Program-made: the position numbers and the translations under genes
Shown here: in pieces, positions 1-11,845 of the stretch
How positions within the stretch are numbered: position 1 is the stretch's first letter
Layout of the letters: every line of letters begins with the position of its first letter
Notes under the pieces: model-generated
Database searches by the model: none
Told to the model about the DNA's origin: nothing
What the model saw: only the letters and a program-made list of their open reading frames with translations
IMG/VR virus record: IMGVR_UViG_3300042894_004766
Location: 1 to 64,000 of that record
DNA from: a virus
DNA: 64,000 nucleotides
Strand: one strand, 5' to 3'

Positions 1-4
1 TTTG

Positions 5-93
5 TAGTCTGTACGGGATTCGAACCCGCGTTACCTCCTTCGAAGGGAGACGTCCTGACCCACCGAGGTGAGTATCCACTAGACGAACAGACC
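5..93 (-). tRNA. tRNA-Glu-scaffold tRNA-like RNA; 7-nt loop CUUCGAA (UCG in the anticodon position); hairpin inserted in D-loop
   Basis: Reverse complement GGTCTGT TC GTCT AGTGG ATACTCACCTCGGTGGGTC AGGAC G TCTCC CTTCGAA GGAGG TAAC GCGGG TTCGAAT CCCGT ACAGACT A; no encoded CCA. Confidence 0.8.
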
Positions 94-182
94 GAAGTGT
101 CGTGTTTTGATTACACTAAAGATGAATTCTTGTATAAGAAGTACCAACTTGTCAACATTACAGAAATGACATTTACACTTAG

Positions 183-255
183 TAGCGGGAGAAGGACTCG
201 AACCTCCGACCTTATGGTTATGAGCCACACGAGCTACCTACTGCTCTATCCCGCG
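183..255 (-). tRNA. Initiator-type tRNA-Met (CAT)
   Basis: CGCGGGA...TGTGG CTCATAA CCATA...TCCCGCT A; 1-72 mismatch and A11-U24 typical of tRNA-fMet. Confidence 0.9.
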
Positions 256-260
256 ATATG

Positions 261-376
261 TAGTCTGTACGGGATTCGAACCCGCGTTCCTCTCTCGTGA
301 CTAAGAGAATGTCCTGTTTACCTTACTTTAATGCCGAAGCTTTTTGTTCAGTAAACATCCACTAGACGAACAGACC
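261..376 (-). tRNA. tRNA-Glu-scaffold tRNA-like RNA; long D-loop hairpin; 8-nt anticodon-position loop
   Basis: Same acceptor, T arm and D-stem as 5-93; D-loop insert TGTTTAC...GC TTCG GC...GTAAACA; arm TTCTCT TAGTCACG AGAGAG. Confidence 0.75.
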
Positions 377-411
377 GAAGAGTGTCGGAATTAAAACGCG
401 CAGCACTCTTA

Positions 412-455
412 TTTTGTTTGACAAAGATACGGTGACTTTTTTAATCTACCAAATC
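412..455 (-). promoter_or_regulatory. Bacteroidota primary-sigma promoter, 44-bp repeat copy 1
   Basis: GATTTGGTAGATTAAAAAAGTCACCGTATCTTTGTCAAACAAAA: TTTG (-33) and TATCTTTG (-7 TAnnTTTG). Confidence 0.85.
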
Positions 456-475
456 TTTTTTCATTTATTTTTTTG

Positions 476-573
476 TAGTCTGTACGGGATTCGAACCCGC
501 GTGTTCTCCTTAATTGCCGAACCGGCGAGAAGACATCCTATCTACCGAGGTAGCTCCACTAGATGAACAGACC
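476..573 (-). tRNA. tRNA-Glu-scaffold tRNA-like RNA; extra hairpin in anticodon arm; no canonical anticodon loop
   Basis: Same acceptor and T arm; D-loop insert CTACC TC GGTAG; arm TCTTCT C GCCG GTT CGGC AATTA AGGAGA. Confidence 0.75.
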
Positions 574-633
574 GAAGAGTTGTGCTTTCTTACACCACGA
601 AGCCGAGTATTTCACACGACGCCTACTCTTATT

Positions 634-677
634 TTTTGTTTGACAAAGATACGGTGACTTTTTTAATCTACCAAATC
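634..677 (-). promoter_or_regulatory. Bacteroidota sigma promoter, repeat copy 2
   Basis: Identical to 412-455. Confidence 0.85.
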
Positions 678-697
678 TTTTTTCAATTTTTTTTTTG

Positions 698-775
698 TGA
701 CCGAAGTTGGGTTCGAGCCAACAACTAGCGTTACTTCTATTTCAAGAATACTACTTTACATTAAGTTACCCGGCC
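698..775 (-). tRNA. Degenerate tRNA-like element, isotype unclear
   Basis: Acceptor GGCCGGG/TTCGGTC (three G-U pairs), D arm ACTT/AAGT, T arm GTTGG CTCGAAC CCAAC, irregular anticodon arm TTCT TGAAAT AGAA. Confidence 0.55.
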
Positions 776-779
776 TTAG

Positions 780-890
780 TAGTCTGTAAGGGATTCGAAC
801 CCATGTTTACAATCTCTCCATATACCAGGGCATAAAAGCGTGAGATTGTCGTCCTATTACCGAAGTAATATACCGCTAGACGAACAGACC
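780..890 (-). tRNA. tRNA-Glu-scaffold tRNA-like RNA; UUCG hairpin in D-loop; 8-bp arm closing a 25-nt loop
   Basis: GGTCTGT...TATTAC TTCG GTAATA GGAC G ACAATCTC[25 nt]GAGATTGT AAAC ATGGG TTCGAAT CCCTT ACAGACT A. Confidence 0.75.
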
Positions 891-897
891 ATTTTAT

Positions 898-941
898 TTT
901 TGTTTGACAAAGATACGGTGACTTTTTTAATCTACCAAATC
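898..941 (-). promoter_or_regulatory. Bacteroidota sigma promoter, repeat copy 3 (related copy at ~1106-1138)
   Basis: Identical to 412-455. Confidence 0.85.
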
Positions 942-1088
942 TTTTTCAGATTTTTTTAATTCTTTTTCTTGAAGTCTCAAAAGTTTACAAACTTCTGAAT
1001 AATGGTAGTAAACACCATCTTGACCTTGAACACCTGTTGCATTTTCTAAAATGAAATCTCCAATAGGTCTTTTTATTTCTTCTGTCAT
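927..1088 (-). CDS. Small hypothetical protein
   Basis: ORF; start moved to MTEEIK because a TATCTTTG promoter overlaps the upstream ATG. Confidence 0.55.
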   Translation of the reverse strand: MTEEIKRPIGDFILENATGVQGQDGVYYHYSEVCKLLRLQEKELKKSEKDLVD

Positions 1089-1153
1089 TATTTCTTTATT
1101 AGAGTACAAAGATACAAAAGTTTTTTAATCTACCAAATATTTTTCAGAATTTT

Positions 1154-3981: not shown

Positions 3982-4821
3982 CTATCTTTTAAATTCATCA
4001 AATTTTAAAAGTTTTGACTCAACTACTACTTCTTTCGCAGTTGTACCACCTCTTCTTTCCATTGCTTTCCATTTCTTATCTAAGAAAGCTAACTTAGCTT
4101 TATCGATTTTGCAGTTTCTATCTGAAATGTTTCCTTCGTTGAAAAGTGCAATCATTTCATCAATACTTAATGTAGGGTGTTTTTTATCAAACAATGGATC
4201 TGGATGTGACCAACCAAATTTAAGTAACCAGTTTAACATAGCAGCCTTACTGAAGTCTTTGTAGTCTTCTGTTGTACCGTTACCTTTTCTCTTAGATAAT
4301 TTAGCATTACCTTCAAAAAGTAAACCAGCATGTGTAATAACTGGAAATGGTTTGTCTCCTTCAACTTCACAAATCTTATCCCAGATTAAGTGTTGTTTTA
4401 CCTCATTTGCAATGTGGTCAACACCTCTGATGATGTTAGTTACATCATAATCATAATCATCTAAGATTGAACAAAAGTTATAAGTAGGAAATCCGTTATT
4501 TCTAAGGATAACCATTGAGTACTCTCCCATATCTAACTCGTAACCATTCTCAGTTTTAGTACCGATTTTTTCAGCTACTTCTTTATAACGGTCTAATCTT
4601 TCGGACTGTCTGAATGTGATGTCATGATCTAATCCAAACTCTGCCATTTGATCATAGATATAGTCAATCCATTCTGGTTTATTTCTTTCTTGATCGGTAT
4701 CATCAATTCTTAAAATGAATGTACCGTTATTAGCTCTTGCTTGAAGCCAAGCAAGTAATGCTGTACGTAAGGTTCCTAAATGAAAGAATCCAGTTGGAGA
4801 GGGTGCTACTCTTGTTACCAT
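3982..4821 (-). CDS. Truncated glutamyl-tRNA synthetase-like protein (catalytic and SC-fold domains only)
   Basis: RVAPSPTG-HLGT, RIDDTD, RQSER, IIRGVDH, KLSKR, FGWS; 279 aa, no anticodon-binding domains. Confidence 0.9.
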   Translation of the reverse strand: MVTRVAPSPTGFFHLGTLRTALLAWLQARANNGTFILRIDDTDQERNKPEWIDYIYDQMAEFGLDHDITFRQSERLDRYKEVAEKIGTKTENGYELDMGEYSMVILRNNGFPTYNFCSILDDYDYDVTNIIRGVDHIANEVKQHLIWDKICEVEGDKPFPVITHAGLLFEGNAKLSKRKGNGTTEDYKDFSKAAMLNWLLKFGWSHPDPLFDKKHPTLSIDEMIALFNEGNISDRNCKIDKAKLAFLDKKWKAMERRGGTTAKEVVVESKLLKFDEFKR

Positions 4822-7043: not shown

Positions 7044-7077
7044 ATAAAAAAACCACTCAAATGAGTGGTTTTCTTTT

Positions 7078-7494
7078 TTATGATTTGTAGAAATCTCCTT
7101 TTTCTTCTACGTATTTCAATCTTGCTTCTTCAGCTTGAGATCTTAGTTTAACATATTCTTTTCTAAGTAATTGAATTTGTTTTTCTTTTTGACTTGTTTC
7201 TAATACAACTTTGAAATCGATAACATTTTTAAGTTTTAAGTACCAGAAGAAGTTATTGATTGACTTTTGTCCGGTTTTTTTACCAACAAGAAATAATCGT
7301 CTTGCTAACTTTTTCTTTCCAGTTTGTGTTAAGTGATCAATCTTAAAGTTTATCCACTCTAAGTGTTCGTTTACTTCACCGTCAACTTTTATTACATATT
7401 TTTTATCAATTGCAACTTGTGTTGCTTTTACCATTAGATTTTTCAAGTTTACATCTAATTCATTTACTCCTGTGTTTGTTTGTTTTGTGTCCAT
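7078..7494 (-). CDS. Hypothetical protein with basic C-terminal coiled coil
   Basis: 138-aa ORF followed by a terminator. Confidence 0.7.
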   Translation of the reverse strand: MDTKQTNTGVNELDVNLKNLMVKATQVAIDKKYVIKVDGEVNEHLEWINFKIDHLTQTGKKKLARRLFLVGKKTGQKSINNFFWYLKLKNVIDFKVVLETSQKEKQIQLLRKEYVKLRSQAEEARLKYVEEKGDFYKS

Positions 7495-7551
7495 TTTTTT
7501 AATATTTTTTTTAGTTATTTTTTAATAATTTTAATCTTCTAAGTTAAAATA

Positions 7552-7584
7552 TTAAGTTGGACCTCTGATTACAATCTATCTCAT
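7552..7584 (-). CDS. Putative amber-containing leader peptide M-R-(TAG)-I-V-I-R-G-P-T
   Basis: AAATAAATAAACAAC ATG AGA TAG ATT GTA ATC AGA GGT CCA ACT TAA; same ATG-NNN-TAG-ATT context as 9508-9519. Confidence 0.55.
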
Positions 7585-7604
7585 GTTGTTTATTTATTTT
7601 TTGT

Positions 7605-8195
7605 TTATATTTCGTTTAATTTTTTCACTTTAAATATTTTTTTGATGTTATCAAGTTTTGCTTTAATATCATCAAGTAATTGTCTTTGAACTCTAGTAAA
7701 AGTTCTACCTTCTTCCATTGCGTCAACTATTGCACAAGTTTCTCTGTAATAGTTTGTTCTGAATCTTTCAGAAGCAGTAAATGCGTCTGCAATGTTATTA
7801 AATCTATCTGATAGTTTAATAGTAAACGCTTTGTCAGACATTTTCAACATTTTATTGATTAGGTAGTTTGTTTTACTACCTCCCCATTTATGTTTAATTT
7901 CATCTGTGTTAGATGTTAACTCTAACATAATATCTGCAACCTCTTTACCAAAAAGTTCTTTCACATCAGCATAAGCATCCCAGATGTTATCATAACAATC
8001 TTCTGCAACATCGTGTACTAAAGCAGCGATTAAGGTTGCTTCATCAGTAGTGTACAATTTTAATGTACCATTTACTTTTTGTACGTGTGCGTCAAAGTAA
8101 GGTTGTCCAGTAAACTTTCTTACTTGATCTTTATGAGCTCTTTGGGCAAATTCCCAAGCTAATTTTTCTTTCGGTGTAATCGGTGCGTTCGCCAT
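7605..8195 (-). CDS. RelA/SpoT-type HD hydrolase (small alarmone hydrolase/Mesh1-like)
   Basis: AHKDQVRK...PY..H, AALVHDVAED, IKLSDRFNN. Confidence 0.85.
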   Translation of the reverse strand: MANAPITPKEKLAWEFAQRAHKDQVRKFTGQPYFDAHVQKVNGTLKLYTTDEATLIAALVHDVAEDCYDNIWDAYADVKELFGKEVADIMLELTSNTDEIKHKWGGSKTNYLINKMLKMSDKAFTIKLSDRFNNIADAFTASERFRTNYYRETCAIVDAMEEGRTFTRVQRQLLDDIKAKLDNIKKIFKVKKLNEI

Positions 8196-8236
8196 AAATC
8201 TTTTCTTTTTATATATTATATTGCAAATATACGATT

Positions 8237-8599
8237 TTATTTTATATATTCCTCAAATTCTTTATAGACTCTTTCCATAAATCTTTTTTCTCTATCAGTT
8301 ATATCTGGTCCTAAATCAAATATAAATTTACTTTTTATGATTTCCCAGTTTTCTTCTTTTGTTTTATCATCATCATAATTATCATAGATAATATCAAATG
8401 AATCTGTACAATAAATATCTACTTTATCTCCTTTTATAGTAGATACATAGTTGTCATTTTCATCAATATATGAGTAGTGACCATCGTAATATCCAGGTAT
8501 TCTTGCGGCACCTATTGGTACACCACCATACATTCTTACATGTGATTCTCCTGTTGGGTCCGCATCTTGCAATATTTTTATAAATTCTTTTGTTGTCAT
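8237..8599 (-). CDS. Hypothetical protein
   Basis: 120-aa ORF in the operon. Confidence 0.7.
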   Translation of the reverse strand: MTTKEFIKILQDADPTGESHVRMYGGVPIGAARIPGYYDGHYSYIDENDNYVSTIKGDKVDIYCTDSFDIIYDNYDDDKTKEENWEIIKSKFIFDLGPDITDREKRFMERVYKEFEEYIK

Positions 8600-8601
8600 A
8601 A

Positions 8602-9525
8602 TTATTGTTTATTTTTTAATAAGTTTAAAACTTGTTTACCTCTTTTATCTAATTGTTTGTATTTTATTTTAAATGAAGTACTTTCAATACCACCAAATAT
8701 CGCTGCATTAGAATGTAATTCACAAAGTGATGTTACTAATAGTGTAAAAACGGTTTCGATTGAGTTTTTTGTAACAAAGTCTTCTACTTCATCTGATTTA
8801 ATAGTATGAAATACCATATCTTTTAAGATTAAATCTGCAACTACTTTGTTATCAGAAATCTTAGAGAATGTATCAAATGATACTTGTGCGTGGTTTGGAA
8901 AGTGTCTTTTACCTTCTTCATCAATTATCATACAATATGCCTTCCCACAATCGTGCATTACTTGATATTCCTTAATATCTTCTAATGAATGTAAGTTGTT
9001 AAGTATAAACTCTTTATTATCTGTAAACCAAGTAGGTAACTTCCATTCAAATACTGGATTACTACTAGTTAAATCGTTAAAATACTTATTGACAGATATG
9101 CCGTGATCTAGTACACTTTGTGTATCAGTTTGAGGTGTATCAATCATATCAGAGATAACTTTCTCGTATGTTAGTTTTGATTTTTTACCTAAAAGTGGAA
9201 GATATGAAACTTTCTTTCTGACATCTTTATCTGCGTATAAACAAATAGATGTAAGTTCATCGTTTAAATCTGGTTCGTAAAATTTTGTGACTGAGGTAAG
9301 TTTGGATAACTTTAAGTATAAGTCATTTAATTCTTTTTCATTGTTTACTTGTAAACAGATGATAGAATTAGATGTAGTTTTCCATTCTTTAAATTGTTGT
9401 GGAAACTCGTATGCGAAGTCTGCAATTGAGTGTGTTGATTGTTGGCTCTGATAGCCTGGAGTTAAATCACTTCTAGTGATAACTACTAATTTTGCTTGGT
9501 CTTTGTTAATCTAAGTCATTGTCAT
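8602..9525 (-). CDS. Pth2-like peptidyl-tRNA hydrolase fused to an HD domain, with an in-frame TAG at 9511-9513
   Basis: Frame is open from 9510 to 8602: KLVVITRSDLTPGYQSQQSTHS...FYEPDL...LPLLG (Pth2-like), then HDCGK...HFPNHA (HD). The upstream ATGs (9525, 9519) are separated from it only by TAG. Confidence 0.8.
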
Positions 9526-9527
9526 AA

Positions 9528-9713
9528 TTATTTATTATTTTTTAAAAATTGTTGTTCTTTTTTAGTTAGACTCTTCATACCTTTTTCTGAAATTTTATCC
9601 AGTATTCGATTTAATTCGTCTTCTTTTTCTTTTCTTATTGAGTTAAATTCATAATCATCAATAAGTCGTTTTTCAACGTTTGTTTTAAATAGTTTTTTAA
9701 ACCAACTTAACAT
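9528..9713 (-). CDS. Small protein with DUF6576-like C-terminus
   Basis: LNRILDKISEKGMKSLTKKEQQFL. Confidence 0.65.
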   Translation of the reverse strand: MLSWFKKLFKTNVEKRLIDDYEFNSIRKEKEDELNRILDKISEKGMKSLTKKEQQFLKNNK

Positions 9714-9736
9714 TGTTTATATATTAAATTTTTTTG

Positions 9737-9802
9737 TGGCTCTGGAGGGGAATGATCCCTCGTCTTCTGGTTTTAGAGGCCTTAGACTAACCATACAAAG
9801 CC
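9737..9802 (-). ncRNA. D-arm-defective tRNA-like RNA with CUA (amber) loop remnant and 11-nt segment complementary to the Pth2 amber site
   Basis: GGCTTTG TA TGGTTAGTCTAAGGC CTCTAAA ACCAG AAGAC GAGGG ATCATTC CCCTC CAGAGCC A; own TATCTTTG promoter (9814-9821) and TTTG (9841-9844). Confidence 0.75.
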
Positions 9803-9845
9803 GTTTTGTTTTACAAAGATACAACTAATTTTTAATACACCAAAT

Positions 9846-10394: not shown

Positions 10395-11648
10395 TTAGTT
10401 TAATTTAGCTCTGATTCCGGGCATATAAATCTCAATCAATTGTATCAATTCTTCTTTACACTCTGGAGTCAATGATTTATTTTTATTTTGATTCAACAAA
10501 ATCATAAATGAACTTACAACTTTATTAAATTTAAAGGCATCTGTAAAGTCAAATATAGTTTTCTTAAATGATTCTATATCAATAGTTTCTTCACCTGTTT
10601 TATCCAACCAAGTTTTCATTCTATTTATAAATCTTCTAATTCCAATTATATTTTCATCAGACCAAGAACCACCATCAAAGTAGTGACCAATAAACATCAA
10701 GTAAAATCTGATTTCATCTGGATCATATCCATCCAAACTAACTACATTTCCCTTTGATTTAGACATCTTTTCACCACCATTCAATATCATTCCTTGGTGT
10801 ACCAACTTATTAATTGGTTCTTCAAAGTCAATAAATCCAATATCATACAAAAACATTGTGATAAATCTAATATAAATCAAGTGCATACAAGCATGTTCTG
10901 AACCACCAACATACAAATCAACTGGTTTTGGTTTAATACCTTTCATCAAACAATAGATAATAGTATAAATAGAACTATCTACGAATGTGTCCATTGTATC
11001 TGTCTCACCTTCAATAGGAATAGGGCAACCCCAACTTCTTTGTCTTGATACACACCAGTCGTGTTGATTTTCCAACCAATTTCTTTGTGACTTTATTGTA
11101 GATTCTGGAAAGTCAATCTTATCCAAACCTGCAATCAATCTATCTTTATAATCTGTGATTTTGAAATACCATTGATTCAATGTTTTCTTTTCTACTTCTG
11201 TAGAACATCTTTCACATTTACCATCTTTTACTTGTTCTCTTGCCAATACAGTTTCACAACTGTTACAGAAGTCAACTTCACCATCTTTCTTATAAGCCAA
11301 ACCTTTATCATACAATTGTTTAAACAACCATTGTGTGTACTCAATATAGTTAGGATCCGAGGTAATCAACATTTCCTCGTATTGAGTATTCATGTTATCC
11401 ATCTGTATTCTAAAATTTTCTATATTTTCGTAGGTAACTTCTCTTGGATCTCTACCTACTTTTTTTGCATAGTTTTCTGCTGGCAAACCATGACTATCAT
11501 ATCCAAAGGGTTGAAAAACTTGTTCACCTTTATATCTCAAGTATCTACAGTAACTATCCATAATCGCATAGTTATACCAGTGTCCACAGTGCAAACCACT
11601 CCCAGAAGGATATGGGAAAAATGTTGCAATATATTTATAATCTTTCAT
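10395..11648 (-). CDS. Minimal leucyl-tRNA synthetase-like protein (no CP1 editing or C-terminal domain)
   Basis: FPYPSGSGLHCGH, GYDSHGLPAEN, QWYFKIT, DWCVSRQRSWGCPIP, TMDTFVDSS, KMSKSKGN. Confidence 0.9.
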   Translation of the reverse strand: MKDYKYIATFFPYPSGSGLHCGHWYNYAIMDSYCRYLRYKGEQVFQPFGYDSHGLPAENYAKKVGRDPREVTYENIENFRIQMDNMNTQYEEMLITSDPNYIEYTQWLFKQLYDKGLAYKKDGEVDFCNSCETVLAREQVKDGKCERCSTEVEKKTLNQWYFKITDYKDRLIAGLDKIDFPESTIKSQRNWLENQHDWCVSRQRSWGCPIPIEGETDTMDTFVDSSIYTIIYCLMKGIKPKPVDLYVGGSEHACMHLIYIRFITMFLYDIGFIDFEEPINKLVHQGMILNGGEKMSKSKGNVVSLDGYDPDEIRFYLMFIGHYFDGGSWSDENIIGIRRFINRMKTWLDKTGEETIDIESFKKTIFDFTDAFKFNKVVSSFMILLNQNKNKSLTPECKEELIQLIEIYMPGIRAKLN

Positions 11649-11845
11649 TTCTTTGTTTTTTTCTTGTAAAGTGACTTGTGTCAATTTTTAATTTTTTAAT
11701 TATTCTATAAATTTTACTTTCAATTAGTTTTGTGTGTTCTTGTTGTATATTTGTACAAATATCTTTACTATCCACTATGTTCCCTACTTATATTTTTAAT
11801 TTAAGCTTAGTTGCAAATATAATAATTAAATTTAATATATAAACT

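Follow-up and report, generated by a model that had tools for sequence, protein, structure and literature searches.

The window, the whole stretch of 64,000 nucleotides analysed here, comes from a single virus contig of 99.8 kb (IMG/VR record IMGVR_UViG_3300042894_004766) and carries phage genes for a T4-type large terminase, a sheath-like protein, a topoisomerase, a NusA-like protein and a ClpB-like protein. Open reading frames (ORFs) of at least 100 aa cover 87% of the contig under translation table 11, the structural genes are intact, and the 98 long ORFs end in TAA (86), TAG (7) or TGA (5). The relatives are jumbo-phage records in IMG/VR, which reach 371 kb, together with the phage LR756501.1 of 735 kb; a scan of cellular genome contigs yielded no relatives. 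Because of the dense table-11 ORFs, the use of TAG stops and the jumbo-phage relatives, it was concluded that the window is part of a jumbo-phage genome with the standard code, in which UAG still functions as a stop. Alternative codes reading TGA as Trp or TAG as Gln were rejected for the window, as neither improved real genes, and general recoding was not found in the neighbourhoods of 68 homologous loci, where the gain from reading TAG as Gln did not exceed that of the TGA-as-Trp control. Assignment to a CPR or Mollicutes genome was dropped after the terminase (TerL), the tail sheath and other phage genes had been found.

The locus of interest is a run of genes on the minus strand. A promoter-like TTTG-N-TAnnTTTG motif (9814-9844) stands upstream of a tRNA-like gene (9735-9802) in which an acceptor stem and a T arm are combined with a CUCUAAA loop carrying CUA. 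This is followed by a 61-aa ORF matching DUF6576 (9528-9713; Pfam PF20216, 9e-13), a Pth2-HD fusion gene (8602-9525) and a 120-aa ORF of the same run that has no family match (8237-8599). A second promoter-like motif of the TTTG/TAnnTTTG type (8224-8257) precedes an HD_4 gene encoding a RelA/SpoT-type HD hydrolase (7605-8195; Pfam PF13328, 1e-14; phrog_990). The micro-ORF that is the main subject of this analysis, referred to below as the leader (7552-7584), lies in the 110-nt spacer between this HD-domain gene (8195-7605) and an ORF of 138 aa (7494-7078), and the operon ends with an intrinsic terminator-like hairpin and T-run (7046-7075). The TTTG...TAnnTTTG motif resembles the Bacteroidota -33/-7 promoter consensus; its presence suggests a Bacteroidota host, which is consistent with translation starts that lack a Shine-Dalgarno sequence. 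Motifs of the form TTTG-N17-23-TAnnTTTG number 12 in the window, against 6.8 expected.

Read on the minus strand, positions 7584-7552 are ATG AGA TAG ATT GTA ATC AGA GGT CCA ACT TAA, translated as M-R-stop-I-V-I-R-G-P-T-stop, with the start codon at 7584-7582 and the final TAA at 7554-7552. The minus-strand sequence thus confirms the amber-containing micro-ORF that a first-pass annotation had reported at 7552-7584, and the distance of 57 nt to the 138-aa gene given there is exact when counted from the leader TAA to the ATG at 7494 (7551-7495). The third codon is an in-frame UAG followed by A (7576-7578), called the gate in what follows; the codons AGA GGT CCA ACT for the arrest-like tail R-G-P-T (7555-7566) lie past it and require read-through to be reached. 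The stop codon of the HD_4 gene is 20 nt before the leader ATG. A strong, A-rich initiation context had been proposed for the leader, and A-rich it is, with the qualification that a Shine-Dalgarno sequence is absent, as at other starts of this phage. The micro-ORF form occurs once on both strands of the 99.8-kb contig (0.07 expected from shuffles). Having a single occurrence in the window, the leader motif was ruled out as a dispersed repeat or operator, and an Rfam scan of positions 7300-7800 with E-values up to 10 matched no RNA family.

Conservation of the leader was assessed in 80 homologous loci (29-99% identity) retrieved by a metagenome scan with the 138-aa protein, and its frequency was counted over the 68 homologue regions that have at least 150 nt upstream. 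A UAG-gated micro-ORF ending in Pro is present in 56 of these 68 regions, whereas shuffles gave a mean of 0.22 and a maximum of 2. In an independent IMG/VR set, the leader was found in 24 of 30 loci; a recognisable leader is missing from about a sixth of the loci. The first-pass annotation had named peptide-level conservation upstream of homologues of the 7078-7494 gene as one check to be made, and its lack, together with a lack of ribosome occupancy, as grounds for giving up the idea; such conservation was found in the metagenome and IMG/VR loci alike. The leaders, which comprise 50 distinct DNA versions and 42 peptides, share the design M-x(1-4)-UAG-x(2-5)-[R/K]-[G/P/S/D]-P-(x)-stop, their tails being KPP, RPP, RGP, RGPT, R-x-PP, RDP or RSP. 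Judged by sequence comparison, the leader is not a product of chance, its design being conserved far beyond what shuffles produce.

The part of the leader behind the gate has the properties of coding sequence. Among homologues of 23-99% identity it is conserved at the amino-acid level; it consists of 4-8 codons, without exception whole ones, insertions and deletions are likewise of whole codons, and the gate and the final stop are never closer than 4 codons. Of 57 cases, 56 have the ending CCN(-NNN)-stop in the reading frame of the UAG. Within the window's clade, the I-R-G-P-T block exists in nine DNA versions that differ at six sites, all of them synonymous and including an exchange of AGA for CGC. 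Across the family, the Arg of the tail is preserved through AGA, CGC, CGA and AGG, Pro uses all four of its codons, and K and R, which interchange, use five codons. Synonymous change, whole-codon spacing and a kept frame together constitute the signature of a translated sequence behind a stop codon.

The gate codon is UAG in 56 leaders and TAA in two (L047 and L058). A purine after UAG is the classic context favouring suppression over release, and 48 of the 50 distinct leaders have one directly after the gate (A 38, G 10; the other two have C and T). In distant clades, a GGAGG Shine-Dalgarno sequence is located 5-7 nt before the leader ATG. The final stop is TAG in three leaders, a codon that a suppressor would read as well, and in the L007/L083 clade (about 80% identity) the final stop has been lost while R-G-P-T was retained.

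Proline at the C terminus of a nascent chain slows release. Arrest of ribosomes has been shown for RAPP, RGPP, RAGP and, in part, RDPP and RSPP; these sequences are resistant to EF-P and depend little on the N-terminal context, which for RAPP and RGPP may be varied and short (PMC12992588). The likeness of the leader to RAGP/RAPP-type motifs that had been suggested earlier holds for the general pattern, [R/K]-[G/P/S/D]-P being similar to these cores, and does not extend to an exact core, which is absent. Because R-G-P-T lies outside the set of tested arrest cores and 10 residues make a short chain for an arrest that acts through the tunnel, stalling at the leader tail is proposed by analogy with these motifs. 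The loss of the stop codon in the L007/L083 clade, with R-G-P-T kept, would fit a pause at R-G-P rather than at the stop.

Both the MFE and the centroid fold of the window's RNA join the end of the leader to the region where translation of the 138-aa gene begins. The 5' strand of this helix (7546-7562, minus strand) is made up of GUCCA (7562-7558) and UUAAUAUUUU (7555-7546), and runs from within the last codons of the leader, across its stop codon, to 6 nt past it. The 3' strand (7489-7508) is made up of AAAAUAUUAA (7508-7499) and UGGAC (7493-7489), the latter including the UG of the 138-aa start codon. RNAalifold applied to the window's clade recovered the AU-rich UUAAUAUUUU/AAAAUAUUAA pairing and not the GUCCA:UGGAC pairs; the helix of this clade is conserved, AU-only, devoid of compensatory changes and weak when taken alone (z -1.5). 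Across the leaders, a duplex test was used in which the 26 nt from the last codon onward were set against the main-gene start region and compared with shuffles (95%). By this test, 45 of 52 leaders show pairing between the segment after the stop and the start region of the main gene (p<=0.05; mean z -3.4), and cognate pairs are more stable than non-cognate ones (-10.1 vs -6.5 kcal/mol, p<1/2000). Leaders ending in CCA-UAA, which pairs with UU-AUG-G, carry compensatory extensions of the helix such as CUGU:ACAG, UUGA:UCAA and UUGU:ACAA (p<2e-4).

The position of this complementarity relative to the ribosome was modelled with a footprint covering -12 to +15 around the P site. For all leaders, the unpaired value of the start region is 0.47 in free RNA. 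A ribosome placed at the gate leaves it almost unchanged (0.48), one placed at the leader end raises it to 0.74, and opening by a ribosome at the leader end is predicted in 45 of 53 leaders (p 4e-9). For the window, the unpaired probability of the region from -15 to +6 is 0.31 in free RNA, stays at 0.31 when a ribosome is placed at the UAG, and rises to 0.93 when it stands at RGP, at T or at the stop. The minimum spacing of 4 codons between gate and stop places the latter just out of reach of a ribosome waiting at the gate. A different arrangement is seen in the clade of L030, L033, L037, L052 and L125, in which the simple post-stop/start pairing is weak and a conserved element of about 40 nt, CAAGT...ACTTG with TCATTATC...GATAATGA, is located between the leader and the main ORF; overlapping pseudoknot-like helices are possible there, with some wobble and compensatory changes.

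The leader is part of a conserved module, the other members of which are a tRNA(CUA), a UAG-gated Pth2 and the protein of the EKGDFYK family encoded by the 138-aa gene. Of 76 metagenome loci, 39 have a same-strand tRNA(CUA) according to ARAGORN, located downstream of the 138-aa homologue in 26 (typically by 14-311 nt) and upstream in 13, and most of the 20-kb IMG/VR neighbourhoods hold one as well, at times within large tRNA arrays. In the tRNA-like gene of the window (9802-9735), the anticodon stem is limited to 2-3 pairs and the D arm is poorly formed, and the gene was called neither by ARAGORN nor by Rfam when these were run on the window. Orthologous genes of relatives reach 28.5 and 23.5 bits with RF00005; L004 and L010 have a better-formed UUCUAAA version in the same place, and that of L082 is also better paired. 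The decoder of the window's UAG is uncertain, the phage's own tRNA(CUA)-like gene being atypical; because the genome is incomplete (relatives are 15-60% complete), another suppressor tRNA may be encoded elsewhere in it. The tRNA(CUA) genes give no hint at the amino acid inserted, as their nearest neighbours differ in identity from one another.

The Pth2-HD gene begins with ATG ACA ATG ACT TAG ATT, placing a UAG at 9513-9511, and its next possible start codon comes 122 codons later. A profile of the Pth2 part matches PDB entries 2zv3 (E 2.5e-9) and 1rzw (2.9e-7) along the full domain; searched on its own, the sequence reaches 21.3 bits, slightly below the Pfam cut-off of 23. It also matches phrog_14850, which begins at residue 35, and the gene has probably been mis-annotated with too late a start. 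The UAG gate of Pth2 is kept in about 50 metagenome loci and in 28 of 28 IMG/VR loci, the gated homologues having M-x(1-n)-TAG a few codons ahead of the conserved K-L-x-V-I-T-R strand. Over all loci, 35 UAG-gated long ORFs were found, 29 of which are Pth2, while the controls gave 13 for TAA and 8 for TGA; within this phage, Pth2-HD is the sole clear gated long ORF. In L030, L033, L037, L052 and the 735-kb phage, Pth2 contains a second internal TAG, 31 codons into the domain and followed by ATT, which implies that the codon is decoded and not bypassed by re-initiation. This internal UAG falls in a variable E/D/Q/N column, from which the inserted residue cannot be deduced.

Within one phage, the Pth2 gate and the leader gate take matching forms. 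In L047, both Pth2 (ATG ACA TAA ATT, L047:1800-1830) and the leader (M-K-E-T-TAA-V-H-I-R-G-P) are gated by TAA, which from the sequences is a concerted change; L058, with a TAA-gated leader, is a short locus that lacks a Pth2 gene. Neither ARAGORN nor Rfam identified a tRNA for these TAA gates in the short L047 and L058 loci, which have no IMG/VR relatives. The complete module is found in LR756501.1 (L125, 684229-696522), at 735 kb the largest published phage genome, where the leader reads M-S-UAG-S-R-P-P, Pth2 has the internal TAG, and two tRNA(CUA) genes lie directly after the EKGDFYK gene. The LR756501.1 record carries no annotation.

Further gated ORFs were noted in passing. Just outside the window, on the plus strand of the contig (G000:C1:64530-64600), ATG AAA TAT TAG ATC is followed by 391 open codons; in this gene (64599-65717) an ATG of the annotated type stands 19 codons later, making it a possible third UAG-gated start in the phage. 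In L001 (380-1360) and in L007/L083, a homing-endonuclease-like ORF has been inserted upstream of Pth2 and continues in frame into the gate, and the ORF in L001 is itself gated at its start (M-K-N-M-UAG-I-K-V).

The 138-aa gene (7078-7494) encodes a member of a basic (pI 9.7), helical family with an invariant C-terminal EKGDFYK. The family comprises 339 clusters at 50% identity, and among the 150 clusters listed nearly all are stand-alone proteins of about 120-180 aa. AF2 predicted the structure of the 138-aa protein with a pLDDT of 87. Searches of Pfam, NCBIfam, PHROG and the ESM Atlas gave no match, a Foldseek search of the PDB with the structure returned nothing at E<1, and the best hits from VIA-align (Z 6.2) were generic helical bundles that offer no functional lead. 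The family probably acts on translation.

The interpretation favoured here, with reasonable though far from full confidence, is that the leader serves as a cis-acting device that converts UAG read-through into expression of the 138-aa gene. A sensor of amber suppression controlling this gene had already been inferred in the first-pass annotation, and the comparison supports it: the peptide is conserved, tRNA(CUA) and a gated Pth2 are linked to the family, the tail resembles arrest cores, and the RNA just after the leader pairs with the start region. According to this interpretation, ribosomes would initiate at AUG 7584. If the UAG is read as a stop by RF1, they would leave after two residues, 14 nt short of the helix, and the 138-aa gene would stay masked. 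If it is decoded, most likely by the phage tRNA(CUA), the ribosome would go on through I-V-I-R-G-P-T, unwind the 5' strand of the helix and be held by slow chemistry at Arg-Gly-Pro or Pro-stop, whereby the 138-aa start region would become free for other ribosomes. Pth2-HD would be gated directly, by the UAG at codon 5, and with both gates in place Pth2-HD and the 138-aa product should be made in proportion to suppressor activity relative to RF1. Leader translation, read-through, stalling and the ON direction of the switch are inferred; the sequence itself, its conservation and coding signature, its linkage to tRNA(CUA) and to gated Pth2, and the position of the complementarity relative to ribosome footprints were established directly.

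The same cis mechanism might instead respond to a fall in RF1, caused by host takeover, a defence response or a co-infecting UAG-recoding phage, with tRNA(CUA) acting as a constant competitor. Since read-through is set by the ratio of suppressor to RF1, sequence cannot separate the two inputs, and an RF1 input would suit a gate that is specific to RF1 and is found as UAG in 56 leaders versus TAA in two, a phage that ends 7 of 98 long ORFs with UAG and whose relatives' neighbourhoods lack general recoding, and the usefulness of Pth2 while ribosomes idle at stops. However, the tight co-location and co-orientation with tRNA(CUA) mark the tRNA as the variable part, and the TAA-gated variants would be read by RF2 as well as RF1; this input is considered unlikely. 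It is improbable that only M-R-stop, or nothing at all, is translated. The post-UAG sequence would in that case function as an RNA element, be it the masking helix, a binding site for a protein or a promoter, with the apparent peptide as its by-product. Two-codon minigenes are known from phage lambda (bar), and the tail is in part constrained as RNA, by CCA-UAA:UU-AUG-G pairing in many loci and GUCCA:UGGAC pairing in the window. Such constraints do not account for a Pro that is kept with all four codons, some of them unable to pair with AUGG, an Arg kept through AGA, CGC, CGA and AGG, variable sites in I-R-G-P-T that are all synonymous, spacing that changes by whole codons with the frame agreeing in 56 of 57 cases, or the use of the same gate to open a long Pth2 ORF that requires decoding.

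Termination at the UAG followed by restart on the adjacent AUU, AUA or GUA would turn the gate into a start-stop device. AUU can serve as a start codon, as in infC, and 34 of the 50 distinct leaders have ATT, ATA or ATC next to the gate; on the other hand, GTA, ACA, AGT, AAC, CTC and TTA occur there as well, the linkage to tRNA(CUA) would be left unexplained, and the internal UAG of Pth2 in L030/L033/L037/L052 and the 735-kb phage precedes its ATT 31 codons into the domain, all of which makes re-initiation quite improbable. Finally, the polarity could be reversed, read-through repressing the 138-aa gene by ribosome queuing, by mRNA cleavage at the stalled ribosome or as a homeostatic shut-off of the tRNA operon. 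This is regarded as highly improbable, as the helix geometry predicts that the start region opens, not closes, with a ribosome at the leader end, and the stall site, 55-150 nt from the main start, is too far away for steric blocking. In favour of reversed polarity, suppressor tRNA genes lie just downstream in many loci, rendering feedback plausible, and stalled ribosomes can provoke cleavage, as with Rae1 (PMC12407103).

If the leader does convert read-through into gene expression, a tentative and rather doubtful extension is that the module as a whole forms a self-contained genetic-code controller in standard-code jumbo phages. The leader would measure UAG suppression and drive an EKGDFYK protein whose target would be either termination, for instance by antagonising RF1, or the suppressor tRNA, for instance as a cofactor of tRNA(CUA). 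Such a controller would exert bistable or homeostatic feedback on the meaning of a stop codon, with Pth2 clearing the resulting peptidyl-tRNAs, and would represent a natural precursor, or a control layer, of phage code switching.

Among known regulatory peptides, the leader most invites comparison with those of the RAPP/RGPP/SecM type (ApdA, ApdP, ApcA and SecM; PMC12992588, PMC10951233, PMC10951299). Like these, it has Arg two to three residues before Pro(-Pro), immediately precedes the regulated gene in the same orientation, and would be expected to open a start-masking helix by means of a stalled ribosome, an opening that the model predicts in silico for a ribosome at the arrest site. The differences are substantial. 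The known cores are R-A-P-P, R-G-P-P or R-A-G-P, whereas the leaders have R-G-P-T, R-G-P-stop, [R/K]-P-P-stop, R-x-P-P-stop, R-D-P or R-S-P; the known peptides are coupled to localisation by a signal or membrane segment, whereas the leader chain of 7-12 residues has no such segment; and they sense secretion, whereas the leader would sense read-through of an in-frame stop and precedes a gene unrelated to protein localisation. Because the exact core and a localisation signal are both absent, the leader was not assigned to this family. With the attenuation leaders of ermC, ermB and cat, the phage element shares a very short leader ORF and a helix that sequesters the downstream start and is relieved by a ribosome. 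The trigger for ermC and cat is an antibiotic in the tunnel, whereas that proposed here is the decoding of a stop codon; the attenuation-type helix is conserved, AU-rich and without covariation in the window's clade, covariation being found in other clades. The prfB gene for RF2 likewise uses an early in-frame stop as a sensor of termination efficiency, although there the codon is UGA, the response is a +1 frameshift and the stop lies inside the regulated gene, in contrast to the leader's UAG, zero frame (56 of 57 loci) and separate downstream gene.

The code change modules of Borges et al. (bioRxiv 10.1101/2021.08.26.457843) also involve phage suppressor tRNAs and read-through that times expression. 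In those recoded phages, in-frame TAG or TGA codons occur in many late and lysis genes, whereas the clear clients here are only the module's own Pth2 and the leader; recoded (code 15-like) phages encode a suppressor tRNA(CUA). In the window, part of an incomplete genome, there is an atypical tRNA-like gene with a CUCUAAA loop, and canonical tRNA(CUA) genes are present in relatives (39 of 76 loci and most IMG/VR ones). An engineered analogue is the amber-gated leader of a 'transcriptional switch' that responds to an unnatural amino acid (PMC6412442, Fig. 8). The switch is synthetic and operates by Rho-dependent termination at an unmasked rut site, whereas the phage element is natural and apparently acts on translation initiation. 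In vertebrates, read-through of AMD1 leads to arrest in a C-tail (bioRxiv 10.1101/2025.11.16.688537); this eukaryotic arrest occurs 384 nt downstream and limits output from the same mRNA, with neither the suppressor tRNA nor the downstream cistron that characterise the phage module. PTH2 was noted in jumbo phages by Iyer et al. Neither a gated Pth2 nor an amber-gated leader is described by Borges et al., Al-Shayeb et al. or Iyer et al., and a literature search found no description of either.

The leader therefore looks like a natural and apparently unpublished switch that reports stop-codon read-through. The new part would be its input, the decoding of an in-frame stop, as the element otherwise works like an attenuation leader with an arrest-type tail; a leader peptide with this input would be a new class of sensor among regulatory nascent peptides and a natural counterpart of engineered amber-dependent switches. 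Suppressor tRNAs of standard-code phages had no known targets, and the module offers two conserved ones, Pth2 and the leader-controlled gene, suggesting that read-through is measured and used as a regulatory signal. At about 110 nt, the element is a small and direct test object for how phages begin or control a change of genetic code.

Other genes of the window with a bearing on tRNA were observed away from the locus. Positions 1-1140 (minus strand) hold an array of four or five tRNA-like genes that have in common the acceptor stem GGTCTGT/ACAGACT and a T arm, and that differ in hairpins inserted in the D loop and the anticodon region. Each is preceded by a near-identical promoter-like repeat of about 45 nt, TTTGGTAGATTAAAAA...TATCTTTG; the genes were missed by ARAGORN and score 20-32 bits with the Rfam tRNA model. 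A GluRS/GluQRS-like catalytic domain of 279 aa without the anticodon-binding part is encoded at 3982-4821 (minus strand), and a cut-down LeuRS-like gene at 10395-11684 (minus strand) encodes 429 aa that match only parts of the 843-position bacterial model.
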